Positions 2 through 8,002 are shown, counted from the stretch's first letter. The stretch is DNA of 8,568 nucleotides from Candidatus Wukongarchaeum yapensis (GCA_016840425.1 JAEOSI010000084.1:1-8568); one strand, 5' to 3'. Program-made: numbers and translations. The notes: generated from the letters alone by a model not told the origin.

Positions 2-454
2 CTTGCGGATGGGTCTACGATTAATAGTCTTCAGATTGGGCAGATTGGTCGTGCTTTGGTATTTAATGAGACGGAGTCTCTTAAGATTTTGTGGGCTTTT
101 AGTGTGGATTATGTTTTGGTGAATTTTGCGGCGGCTGAGATGAATGCTGGTAGTGATTTGGCGAAGGCTATTTGGATGATAAGGATCGGTCAGCAATATG
201 GTACGATGGGGGCGAATTTTGAAGTAAGTGATTACTATAAAGACGGGAAGTATACGGAAGCTTTCACTGATGGGGTTTTATACAGGCTGTGTATGTATAA
301 TATGGATGCGTATAAGGAGAAGTTGACTAACAGTGGGCTTTTTGATGAGGTGCCTAGTGTTTCTAGTTTGACGTATTTTAATGAAGTTTTTACAAGCACA
401 AACGATTGGGTACGGATCTACCAGGTAGTGTATCCTGTAGGCTATATCCCTTAA
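2..454 (+). CDS. aglB: Oligosaccharyltransferase AglB/STT3, C-terminal part (5'-partial; the frame is open from the window edge)
   Basis: The frame is open from nt 2: LADGSTINSLQIGQIGRALVFNETESLKIL...DYVLV...SDLAKAIWMIRIG...LYRLCMY...EVFTSTNDWVRIYQV. This matches the STT3 segment after WWDYG, including the DK motif DxxKxxxM (DLAKAIWM) and the terminal VRIY(K/Q)V. WWDYG itself lies outside the window. Confidence 0.85.
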   Translation, partial: LADGSTINSLQIGQIGRALVFNETESLKILWAFSVDYVLVNFAAAEMNAGSDLAKAIWMIRIGQQYGTMGANFEVSDYYKDGKYTEAFTDGVLYRLCMYNMDAYKEKLTNSGLFDEVPSVSSLTYFNEVFTSTNDWVRIYQVVYPVGYIP

Positions 455-639
455 GTTTTTGAGGGAGTTTTTTCTTCTTCCATTTTCTTTTTCCAGACTC
501 TTCTAAATTTTCCGTATCTGTCTTCTGGTGAAAACTTTGGGGGGTGTGCTGTCTTAACAGGACCCCCGCAAAAGGGGCATGTAGATTTTTGTAACGTGTA
601 TCGCATACATTTTTGGCATCGTTGAAGCATTTTAGGCAT
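451..639 (-). CDS. nop10: H/ACA RNP protein Nop10
   Basis: MPKMLQRCQKCMRYTLQKSTCPFCGGPVKTAHPPKFSPEDRYGKFRR has the zinc-ribbon CxxC...CxxC and the HPPKFSPEDRYGKYR-type Nop10 signature. ATG at 639 has GGAG (648-645) upstream, which is preferred over the TTG at 654. It follows aIF2-alpha, as in many archaea. Confidence 0.95.
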   Translation of the reverse strand: MPKMLQRCQKCMRYTLQKSTCPFCGGPVKTAHPPKFSPEDRYGKFRRVWKKKMEEEKTPSKT

Positions 640-660
640 AAAAACTCCGACCAAAAACTC

Positions 661-797
661 TTAAAAGCGTATCAGTATGGATCGTTGGAAAATGCTCCTA
701 ACTGTAATCCCCGCGTGAACTCGGGCAACGTGAGCAAATGGAACGGATCACATTTGACGTCTATGGAAGTTCCGTCTGTAAGGGCGGGGTAGTTCAC
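661..797 (+). mobile_element. IS200/IS605-family right-end remnant (tnpB 3' tail + RE hairpin; possible omegaRNA/reRNA scaffold). Left boundary uncertain.
   Basis: GAAG (766-769) + hairpin TTCCGTCT-GTAA-GGGCGGGG (770-789, all Watson-Crick or G.T pairs) + TAGT + TCAC (794-797). GAAG/TCAC fits the IS608-type guide/cleavage-site pairing rule. An open frame from 661 ends ...MEVPSVRAG*, like tnpB tails that run into the RE. GTGAACT (715-721) is complementary to the terminal AGTTCAC (791-797). Confidence 0.7.
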
Positions 798-1636
798 TCT
801 CTTTCGAATTGGAAGGAACAGTTTGACCGGTTTAGGGCTTTTTTAACTTTGTTAACCGCTTTGCTTAGGGCTTTTTCAGCGGTTTGAAAATCTTTTGCTT
901 CTACTTCGATGCGGTATCTTGGTGCGCCTAGGGAGTATATGTCGATTTCGGATTTTTTATCTGCTGATAAAGATTTGGTAAGGGCGTCTTTAATGATGTC
1001 GACTCCGTTTGGTTCCGTGCTGTTTAATGAAAAAATACCGGATACTTTAACTTTTTTAACTTCAATAGATGACTTTGCAAATTCTTCTAAGATGTCGGCC
1101 CATTCTTTCGGGATTCCTGCATTTATTAAAATTTCAGCTCCTCCTTCAAAAGCAGCTTCTAAACCCCCGTAACTGCTTCCAAATTCTTTTTCTAGAATAT
1201 CATTCACTTCTTCCAAGCTGAGGGGTTTCACTCCCATTTCCTCGATTCTTTTCTGGGCTAAAGCGAGGAGATTTGCTGCTTTTTGCGCGTTTTTCCATGC
1301 TCGAAGTGTTTCACGTTTTTGGGAGTCTGAGACCCTACGCATCGAGACATCGACTTGCCTTTTCTGGCGGTTAACCCGAAGCACCTTAGCAACTGCCTTT
1401 TGCCCTTCCTTTATGTAGTTCCGAATATTTCGCACCCATGTCGAAGCTATTTTCGGAGATATGACGGGAAATCATATCTTTTCCGAGATATGACAAAAGG
1501 CTTCTTCTTCTATGTTGGGGTATTCATCTATTTTGAAATAGGCGCCATATGGTGTTACCTTGTTGCAGGTGACTACAAGGAATTCGCCTTCTTCGGGCAT
1601 ATATTCTTCTTTTTCGTAACCTGTTTTTTTCGTCAT
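794..1636 (-). CDS. eif2a: Translation initiation factor 2 alpha subunit (aIF2-alpha/eIF2-alpha); join(complement 1481-1636, 794-1450); 270 aa after removal of a 30-nt intron
   Basis: The ORFs 1472..1663 and 794..1435 are in the same frame. The N-terminal S1 domain (PEEGEFLVVTCNKVTPYGAYFKIDEY...HISE) continues as IASTWVRNIRNYIKEGQKAVAKVLRVNRQKRQVDVSMRRV and ends with the ...YSLGAPRYRIEVEAKDFQTAEKAL domain. ATG at 1636 is preceded by GGAGG (1644-1640). Confidence 0.92.
1451..1480 (-). other. Predicted 30-nt BHB-type mRNA intron in aIF2-alpha
   Basis: The mRNA reads UCGG-AA^A-AGAUAUGA-UUUCCCG-UCAUAUCU-CCGA-AA^A-UAGC. It has a 4-bp central helix UCGG/CCGA, two 3-nt AAA bulges and an 8-bp intron stem. 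Cutting after the 2nd nt of each bulge removes 30 nt, including the in-frame UGA (1474-1472), and gives UCG GAA AUA GCU (S-E-I-A). Confidence 0.85.
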
Positions 1637-1663
1637 TTTCCTCCAAAGCTCCTTTAAGAGCAT

Positions 1664-3987: not shown

Positions 3988-4090
3988 TGCGGGGGACGGG
4001 ATTCGAACCCGCGCAGGCCTACGCCACTGGGTCCTGAACCCAGCACCTTAAACCAAAAAACCTTTTTTGGCCGGACTCGGTCACCCCCGC
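3988..4090 (-). tRNA. tRNA-Leu(CAG) with an 18-nt D-loop intron at 21/22 (4049-4066); CCA not encoded
   Basis: Acceptor GCGGGGG/CCCCCGC, anticodon arm CUGGG-UU-CAG-GA-CCCAG, long variable arm and T-arm GCGGG-UUCGAAU-CCCGU. Removing the BHB-defined intron gives the normal D-loop GAGUCCGGCCAAAGG. Confidence 0.93.
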
Positions 4091-6459: not shown

Positions 6460-6588
6460 TGGTGGGGCCTGCGAGATTTGAACTCACGTGAGCGGGTACC
6501 TTCGTCGTATAAAAATCCTCTGGAGCCCGCCATGCTACCAAGTTGTGCCTAGCGGCTTGTTTTGCTGCTTTGTCTACATCAAGGCCCC
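6460..6588 (-). tRNA. tRNA-Trp(CCA), CCA-encoded, with two introns: 31 nt in the D-loop (about 15/16; 6543-6573) and 22 nt at the canonical 37/38 site (6498-6519)
   Basis: Acceptor GGGGCCU/AGGCCCC + ACCA, D-stem AUGU/GCAU, anticodon arm GCGGG-CU-CCA-GA-CCCGC after removing the 22 nt, T-arm GUGAG-UUCAAAU-CUCGC. Removing the 31 nt gives the standard GUAGCUUGGUAGCAU D-arm. Confidence 0.9.
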
Positions 6589-6679: not shown

Positions 6680-6868
6680 CCCTGCCTGTAACTAAAAAAG
6701 AAAGTTCTTAAAAAAACTTTACGGTTTAGTTAGACAAAAATGAACTAAACAACATCTATAAGGAGGCTTCACTAAAGCATTCATTATGGCATTAATTCTG
6801 AAAACGCTTATGAAAACATAAACTTAGGAAATAATGCTAATCATGCTCTTATTTGGTGGTTAAACCCT

Positions 6869-7156
6869 ATGTCTATTAATGTGAAGTTTTTTGCAATTTT
6901 TCGTGATCTTTTGGGCTTAAAAGAGTTACAATTAGAAGCGGGATCCAAAGAGAATCTAAAACTGATAGACCTTTTAGAGAGTTTGTTTCAAAGATTTGGG
7001 GAGGATTTTCGCTCCAAAATTTTAGAAAATGGAAATATTAGGCCAAAGGTAAATATAATGATTAATGGTAGAAACATAAAGTTTTTAGACGGGGTTAACT
7101 CTACCTTAAAAGATGGCGATATCGTAGCCATATTTCCCCCTGTTGCAGGAGGTTAA
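6869..7156 (+). CDS. MoaD/ThiS-family ubiquitin-like sulfur carrier (SAMP-like)
   Basis: 95 aa beta-grasp pattern VKFFAIFRDLLG...VNIMINGRNI...LKDGDIVAIFPPVAGG with a C-terminal Gly-Gly. Confidence 0.92.
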   Translation: MSINVKFFAIFRDLLGLKELQLEAGSKENLKLIDLLESLFQRFGEDFRSKILENGNIRPKVNIMINGRNIKFLDGVNSTLKDGDIVAIFPPVAGG

Positions 7157-7588: not shown

Positions 7589-8002
7589 ATGAGGGTAGAG
7601 AATCCTATCAAACGATACAAATCAGGCAACCATTTGGTGTACAGTTGTCAGTATCATGTCATATTCTGTTCAAAGTATAGAAGATCAGTACTTGTAGGTG
7701 GTGTTGAAAAGAGACTTAAAGAGTTAATTCTTGAAAACCAGGAAGAATACGGTTATGAAGTGCTCGATATGGAGATTATGTCAGACCACGTTCATTTATT
7801 GCTGGATGTGAATCCAAAGATAGGTGTTTTTAGAGTTGTTAACAAGATTAAGGGATATACTTCCAGAAAACTCAGAGAGGAATTTCCAGCTCTGAGAAAG
7901 CGTCTTCCAACTTTGTGGACTCACTCGAAGTTTATATCCTCTGTCGGGGCTGTAACTCTTGAAGTTGTTAAAAAATACATTGAAGAGCAGAAGGGGAAAT
8001 AG
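7589..8002 (+). CDS. tnpA: IS200-type Y1 HUH transposase
   Basis: YSCQYHVIFCSKYRR, the HUH motif DHVHLL, LWTHSKFISSVG and the catalytic Y-x-x-x-Q (KKYIEEQ). Confidence 0.96.
   Translation: MRVENPIKRYKSGNHLVYSCQYHVIFCSKYRRSVLVGGVEKRLKELILENQEEYGYEVLDMEIMSDHVHLLLDVNPKIGVFRVVNKIKGYTSRKLREEFPALRKRLPTLWTHSKFISSVGAVTLEVVKKYIEEQKGK

Follow-up and report, generated by a model that had tools for sequence, protein, structure and literature searches.

How can an archaeon obtain the translation initiation factor aIF2-alpha, an essential and indispensable protein, from a gene whose reading frame is broken by a stop codon? The question is raised by an 8,568-nucleotide stretch of DNA from Candidatus Wukongarchaeum yapensis (GCA_016840425.1, JAEOSI010000084.1:1-8568), hereafter the window. 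Here the aIF2-alpha gene occupies the minus strand (1636-794) and starts with an ATG at 1636-1634. Its unspliced frame is open from this codon to a TGA at 1474-1472, which would specify a stub of 54 amino acids, and from 1471 this frame is once more free of stops up to the termination codon at 796-794. Excision of 30 nucleotides (1480-1451) joins GAA to ATA and yields a 270-amino acid product reading ...AFCHISE^IASTWVRNIR... (a caret marks the junction or cut). We consider it likely that these 30 nucleotides are a bulge-helix-bulge (BHB) intron in the sole aIF2-alpha gene of the organism, excised by the endonuclease EndA, with the exons being joined by RtcB. An earlier note on this DNA had proposed such an intron, and its account of two gene pieces in one frame, a TGA-containing 30-nucleotide insert, and a stub replaced by a full-length product is borne out by our frame analysis.

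We infer from the sequence that EndA and RtcB would act on this transcript as follows. In the pre-mRNA, the final exon 1 bases UCGG would pair with CCGA from the 3' part of the intron, leaving one AAA bulge on each strand, and an 8-bp intron hairpin would close one side of the structure. EndA would cut within both bulges and RtcB would ligate the exons as GAA^AUA, which would restore the HISE^IAS motif and the 270-residue protein; the released 30-nucleotide intron would probably be circularised. The predicted spliced junction is ...UCGGAA^AUAGCUUCG..., beginning UCGGAA^AUAGCU, and the predicted junction-spanning tryptic peptide lies within AFCHISEIASTWVR.

Sequence, distribution and predicted fold of the insert

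The TGA-containing insert interrupts a conserved motif of the S1 domain, and its boundaries were set independently of any fold, by alignment with a congener (G001, 89% protein identity) that lacks exactly these 30 nucleotides. The same 30 nucleotides are precisely absent from two JGI metagenome contigs (L040 and L041) and from a Logan contig (L055, 90% protein identity), and in the 40 relatives from the phylum that were searched, every aIF2-alpha frame is unbroken and 264-308 amino acids long. An alignment of the spliced protein with 47 orthologues shows no gap at the junction, and the motif that spans it, HISE^(I/V)A(S/A), is the most strongly conserved one. The expected domain order, an N-terminal S1/OB domain followed by PF07541, is confirmed. 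In Pfam searches the break falls in the middle of S1: exon 2 matches positions 43-74 of the 74-position hidden Markov model (HMM), compared with positions 2-74 for the intact L055 protein, and the first half of S1 was assigned to exon 1 by alignment with intact orthologues.

The insert is found in eight further contigs (L054 and L056-L062), which are 97.9-99.4% identical to the window gene at the DNA level and originate from two other NCBI metagenome-assembled genomes (MAGs), four Logan runs, one ENA assembly and one JGI assembly. Run X4, which belongs to a different study, contains it in two haplotype contigs; these end 10 nucleotides into exon 1, and the 5' junction is bridged there by few bases, while the contigs of X3, X7 and X15 do not span the insert. 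Scans of metagenome and genome collections returned intron-less relatives only. Public annotation of aIF2-alpha from this species consists of truncated products of 196, 213 or 222 amino acids, and in a protein search all 15 sequences of the 90%-identity cluster were truncated to these lengths, except for the intron-less L055 product. This distribution points to a recent gain of the intron, confined to one species-level lineage.

The minimum free energy (MFE) fold of a 76-nucleotide region around the insert contains the BHB motif. All four pairs of the central helix H (U1486-G1483 with C1456-A1453) are Watson-Crick pairs, and the helix is flanked by 3-nucleotide bulges on opposite strands; the intron stem h' (1479-1472 with 1464-1457) has eight Watson-Crick pairs and a possible U.G closing pair. 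By an established rule, reportedly due to Marck and Grosjean in 2003, the BHB cut falls after the second bulge nucleotide. Since both bulges sit in runs of four A residues, four cut registers give an identical spliced product. Only in the frame-restoring register do we find a complete H helix together with an h' stem of 8-9 bp, neighbouring registers scoring near zero. When the insert was shuffled, 249 of 200,000 sequences reached the BHB score at the frame-restoring register (±8 nucleotides of slack allowed). The BHB core has a calculated energy of -11.5 kcal/mol and pair probabilities of at least 0.95 in five of six sequence contexts (76 to 337 nucleotides), and the plain MFE z-score of the 76-nucleotide region is an unremarkable -1.47. 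The structure departs from the strict hBHBh' form, the exon-side helix h having 0 bp in the strict register and h' 8-9 bp, and is best described by the folding as a relaxed HBh' or bulge-helix-loop (BHL)-like motif. Folding thereby reproduces what had been drawn from inspection of the sequence, namely a UCGG/CCGA helix between two AAA bulges, an 8-bp stem and a loose exon helix. Coordinates are given in Table 1.

Table 1. Features of the aIF2-alpha locus and of the predicted pre-mRNA fold, in window coordinates
Feature	Position	Strand	Basis or remark
Shine-Dalgarno-like GGAGG, 3 nucleotides upstream of the ATG	1640-1644	-	Sequence inspection
aIF2-alpha exon 1, 52 codons, N-terminal half of the S1/OB domain	1481-1636	-	Gapless alignment to residues 1-52 of 47 orthologues
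Candidate 30-nucleotide BHB-type intron with in-frame TGA (1474-1472)	1451-1480	-	Frame analysis and comparison with relatives
aIF2-alpha exon 2, 218 codons and stop; remaining S1, helical and C-terminal domains	794-1450	-	PF07541 E=1.7e-27; S1 HMM 43-74
nop10, downstream in the same orientation	454-654	-	PF04135 E=3.7e-20
Central helix H, 5' strand UCGG, in exon 1	1483-1486	-	Pairs with 1453-1456; probability 0.95-1.0 in 5 of 6 contexts
Central helix H, 3' strand CCGA, at the 3' intron end	1453-1456	-	Fold and register score
5' bulge AAA; predicted cut between 1481 and 1480	1480-1482	-	Cut rule
3' bulge AAA; predicted cut between 1451 and 1450; no clean exon helix (relaxed, HBh'/BHL-like)	1450-1452	-	Fold
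Intron hairpin h': AGAUAUGA (1479-1472), loop 1471-1465, UCAUAUCU (1464-1457)	1457-1479	-	Fold
Exon copy of UCAUAUCU, able to pair with 1479-1472 as a competing hairpin	1486-1493	-	-7.4 kcal/mol, against -11.5 for the BHB core

Splicing enzymes, other inserts and genomic setting

The host MAG (2.16 Mb, 38% GC, 277 contigs, 92% complete) encodes both activities that the proposed reaction would draw on. RtcB is found on contig C137 (586 bits), and a catalytic EndA subunit containing both domains (PF01974, 97 bits; PF02778, 67 bits) is located at G000:C113:735-1346 on the plus strand. Among solved structures, it is best matched by the catalytic subunits of the heterotetrameric enzymes from A. pernix, S. 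tokodaii and P. aerophilum (E 1.7e-49 to 1.8e-35), with the M. jannaschii homotetramer matching far behind these crenarchaeal enzymes. The alignment with the A. pernix structure 3P1Z_B is gapless across the Crenarchaea-specific loop (CSL); Lys-44 is kept and Arg-46 is replaced by lysine. This loop confers broad specificity, including towards BHL motifs, and requires Lys-44 (PMC3241643). A Lys/Glu-rich N-terminal extension of ∼25 residues in the host protein is absent from the crenarchaeal structures. A putative (alpha-beta)2 architecture would call for a beta subunit, for which the 92%-complete MAG gave no match. Introns are common among the tRNA genes of this genome: ARAGORN, run with introns allowed, predicts one in 27 of 29.

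The earlier note had deduced a broad-specificity endonuclease from three non-ideal tRNA introns in the window. The loop and the retained Lys-44 would agree with such an enzyme. As to the window itself, we observe two tRNA-like genes on the minus strand with additional internal sequence. One (6460-6588) resembles tRNA-Trp(CCA), has an encoded CCA and contains additional stretches within the D region and beyond position 37; the other (∼3995-4089) is class II-like, its T arm and acceptor stem are good, and it too has extra internal sequence. ARAGORN called no tRNA in the window, missing both, and for the two genes Rfam returned only weak tmRNA-clan matches.

BHB-type inserts are present in three other protein-coding genes of the host. 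An Alba paralogue (C201:429-464, plus strand, corresponding to L053:429-464) contains a 36-nucleotide insert with an in-frame TAG in a strict BHB (H helix CGGU/GCCG, bulges AA^A and UA^U), the removal of which joins KPV^MNY. In the congener, the same Alba codon holds a longer intron of unrelated sequence, the H helix of which is CUGU/ACAG; between the two, a G:C pair is replaced by a compensatory U:A pair, and on the exon side this changes CCG synonymously to CCU. C254 carries another Alba gene, which is uninterrupted. In dnaG (C87, minus strand), a GC-rich insert of 32 nucleotides lies between GALFGQ and TEGLLG (H helix GGCC/GGUU, both bulges AA^A) and is shared with the congener (L078), with three substitutions. 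Finally, a radical SAM gene (C235, minus strand; offset 6855-6895 of the reverse complement) has a 41-nucleotide insert with a strict hBHBh' motif that is exactly absent from the congener (L064). The adjoining exon codons form helices in this motif, and synonymous differences between the two species are clustered there. Comparison of the host with the congener covered 400 kb of the latter, of which 370 kb aligned, and is no census of mRNA introns; among 20 indels of at least 10 nucleotides at coding sites, only the radical SAM insert scores as high as that in aIF2-alpha.

These individual cases are of the kind anticipated when a search for other split genes had been suggested. A genome-wide scan for frame-merging BHB motifs gave no excess over frame-shifted controls, with 7,722 loose-motif matches at the correct cut register compared with 7,703-7,801 in controls, and 476-1,190 matches compared with 505-1,244 for the strict motifs. 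The scan is uninformative because operon junctions swamp the signal.

The aIF2-alpha/nop10 pair is a conserved neighbourhood, with the same order in L060 and L061. Other intact genes in the window encode S27e, GINS51, PCNA, an OB-fold protein, a VWA protein, a MoxR-type ATPase, a ThiS-like protein and an IS200 transposase. The IS200-type TnpA (PF01797, E=9e-41) lies in the segment 7589-8568 on the plus strand; the open frame behind it has no Pfam match, extends past the window edge and is possibly TnpB.

Selection on the gene and competing explanations

We compared nine alleles, consisting of the window and the eight further contigs, each of which differs from the window by no more than ∼2%. 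Of the 31 sites that vary among them, one is intronic, 14 are nonsynonymous and 14 synonymous, and the remaining two lie within or directly beside the stop codon. Neutrality would predict 79% nonsynonymous changes (3.7:1), compared with the 14 of 28 observed (binomial P=0.0008). None of the nine alleles has an additional stop codon or frameshift, and between species, omega is 0.04-0.15 in both exons. Exon 1 could decay if the C-terminal part of the protein alone were used, yet it shows no nonsynonymous and two synonymous differences among the nine alleles, which argues that the gene is retained. These comparisons point to purifying selection on both exons. The single intron polymorphism, A1460G, occurs in five of the nine alleles (L054 and L056-L059) and converts the U1476-A1460 pair to U.G, so that pairing is kept. 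It creates an AUG within the insert in frame with exon 2, which accounts for the 222-amino acid gene calls.

Several points weigh against splicing, the case for which has been built from DNA and a predicted fold. The exon-exon helix is poor, the MFE structure offering only UAU/AUA and UGUC/GACA across internal loops, and cleavage at the relaxed 3' splice site, where a clean exon helix is missing, would depend on a broad-specificity enzyme. For such an enzyme, no second EndA subunit was detected in the MAG by tblastn with the alpha subunit or by searches with PF01974 (E up to 10). In one of the six contexts the competing hairpin (1493-1486 with 1479-1472) reaches ∼45% for the window allele, and in that context it amounts to 99% for the A1460G allele. 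The shuffle test overstates significance if the insert arose by local duplication: most of the insert can be read as nearby copies, direct or inverted, of the exon end, and on this reading the mutational mechanism alone would produce a hairpin. Recombination with functional alleles could have brought in part of the polymorphism. Covariation, which the earlier note had proposed to look for among orthologues, is limited in this intron to one one-sided change.

Four other explanations were considered. Local duplication may have inactivated aIF2-alpha, with its function being provided by something missing from the assembly; the insert does hold a stop codon and resembles a mutational product of the adjacent exon, and a MAG that is 92% complete in 277 contigs leaves room for a missing gene. 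The earlier note had likewise allowed for a second intact copy beside a decaying one. We consider a dead gene unlikely, given that aIF2-alpha is single copy both here and in the congener, that the nine alleles are free of further lesions and show a 1:1 ratio of nonsynonymous to synonymous changes in place of 3.7:1, that the start codon, the Shine-Dalgarno-like GGAGG and the nop10 operon context are intact, and that BHB-type inserts are also tolerated elsewhere in this genome, namely in dnaG, Alba and the radical SAM gene. An assembly or sequencing artefact, to which the breaking of Logan contigs beside the repeat at 1490 might point, has a next to negligible probability: full-length contigs from nine assemblies, produced from different samples with different pipelines, carry the same 30 nucleotides, and we thus regard the insert as real DNA.

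Alternatively, the ribosome could hop over the insert, or read through the TGA and keep ten extra residues. Translational bypass elements, such as those of T4 gene 60 and the yeast mitochondrial byps, require matched in-frame take-off and landing codons. The aIF2-alpha insert resembles them as a short, stop-containing and repeat-flanked insert with a hairpin in an essential coding sequence: exon end and intron end form a 15/16-nucleotide direct repeat with GAA codons, and the stop codon follows soon after the possible take-off site, where a hairpin is located. However, the repeat is offset by 29 and not 30 nucleotides, and a ribosome landing on the GAA at 1454-1452 would go on to read AAU AGC UUC in the wrong frame. 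Read-through would place the ten residues in the HISE^IAS strand, where none of the 47 orthologues has an insertion, and translational rescue in either form is very improbable in our view. We give no more credit to a split protein, in which the 54-residue stub and a C-terminal product made from an internal start would cooperate. Such a start is provided by A1460G in five of nine alleles, and gene callers predict the corresponding 222-amino acid product, but AUA stands at this position in four alleles, that of the window included, no Shine-Dalgarno-like sequence precedes the internal AUG, and the break would divide the S1 fold, exon 2 holding only the last part of its HMM (43-74 of 74). Excision of a BHB intron hence remains the explanation we favour, and it is supported by the exact absence of the insert in relatives, its presence in nine assemblies, the signature of selection, the frame-restoring register and the occurrence of EndA and RtcB in the host.

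Origin of the proposed intron and relation to known systems

The intron can be read as four consecutive pieces: a single A, the reverse complement of the exon sequence TCATATCT, the hexamer TTTCCC, which is nearly the reverse complement of exon CGGAAA, and a direct copy of the exon end GTCATATCTCGGAAA. This last piece matches its exon counterpart at 14 of 15 positions, and the lone mismatch is what completes the four pairs of the central helix. A simple tandem duplication was rejected as the origin, as the repeat period is 29 nucleotides and the middle 14 nucleotides are not a direct copy. A search for further copies in the genome (blastn-short) gave only chance matches of up to 15 nucleotides, and the intron is therefore not a repeated mobile element.

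The exon has changed as well. At the junction, the intron-bearing lineage has CAT ATC TCG GAA and all three intron-less lineages have CAC ATA AGC GAR, a difference of five synonymous changes that includes a switch of serine codon family; the exon-side strand of H is found in the intron-bearing lineage alone. Around the junction there is a local rise in divergence from G001 and L040, and the mosaic of L055 breaks beside it. L055 (981 nucleotides) is an intron-less allele that differs from the window by ∼23% in its first 170 nucleotides and by ∼7% in the rest; the mosaic break lies a few codons past the intron site and stems from recombination or from a contig that is chimeric. The exon may have been altered first and copied afterwards, or exon and intron may have been written together, by a single complex event or by conversion from an allele outside the sample. 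We advance tentatively, and with rather low confidence, that the intron was born on the spot from inverted and direct copies of the 15-nucleotide exon end and not imported, and that the shared arm, able to pair with the exon or within the intron, might also gate splicing of the translation factor at its Ser48/51-equivalent loop. If this were true, the locus would, together with the radical SAM intron, catch Asgard archaea in the act of creating mRNA introns de novo in essential genes.

In eukaryotes, HAC1 and XBP1 mRNAs are cleaved by Ire1 and ligated by Trl1 or RtcB in a stress-regulated switch. The aIF2-alpha case is similar in that an mRNA intron would be removed by a structure-recognising endonuclease and a tRNA ligase, changing the protein that is made; the nuclease and the recognition motif are different, and the stress switch belongs to the eukaryotic system. 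Among archaea, the intron of the cbf5 pre-mRNA occurs in Crenarchaeota (Desulfurococcales and Sulfolobales), frequently with a relaxed motif (Watanabe 2002; Yokobori 2009, PMC2738675). The aIF2-alpha intron belongs to this cbf5-type class, in a new gene. Both are short BHB-type introns in coding sequence, often relaxed, found alongside an EndA of crenarchaeal type with a CSL, and gained or lost among relatives. They differ in gene and phylum and are not homologous in sequence, and the cbf5 intron is ancient, whereas that of aIF2-alpha is confined to one lineage; splicing of cbf5 has been demonstrated experimentally, whereas that of aIF2-alpha is deduced from DNA.

The second reported archaeal case, Haloferax volcanii HVO_1309, is a BHB intron in a 5' untranslated region, and the paper describing it names cbf5 as the only other one (PMC7714728). 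It too makes an mRNA a substrate of the tRNA-splicing endonuclease, but it is a leader intron that is independent of the reading frame, with a canonical BHB that is cut by a narrow-specificity euryarchaeal enzyme. The literature that we searched contains cbf5 of Crenarchaeota as the sole BHB intron in a coding sequence and the Haloferax leader as the one 5' untranslated case (PMC7714728, PMC2738675), in keeping with the earlier statement that none had been described in aIF2-alpha. Asgard tRNA genes with multiple introns have undergone many recent gains on terminal branches, with no known route of arrival (PMC11291895; bioRxiv 10.64898/2026.10.13.758758). They share with the intron described here the host group, the presumed enzymes and the recency of the gains, but both papers cover tRNA genes only, and protein-coding genes are unmentioned.

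If the intron is spliced, an indispensable initiation factor depends on it in an Asgard archaeon, a member of the group closest to eukaryotes. Considered with the sequences of the Alba, dnaG and radical SAM genes, the aIF2-alpha intron suggests that splicing of mRNA by the tRNA machinery may be routine in this lineage. In intron-rich Asgard genomes, genes of this kind will be miscalled by annotation pipelines and in inferences on completeness or metabolism. The young intron, present in one species and absent from its congener, provides a before-and-after pair for the origin of BHB introns.
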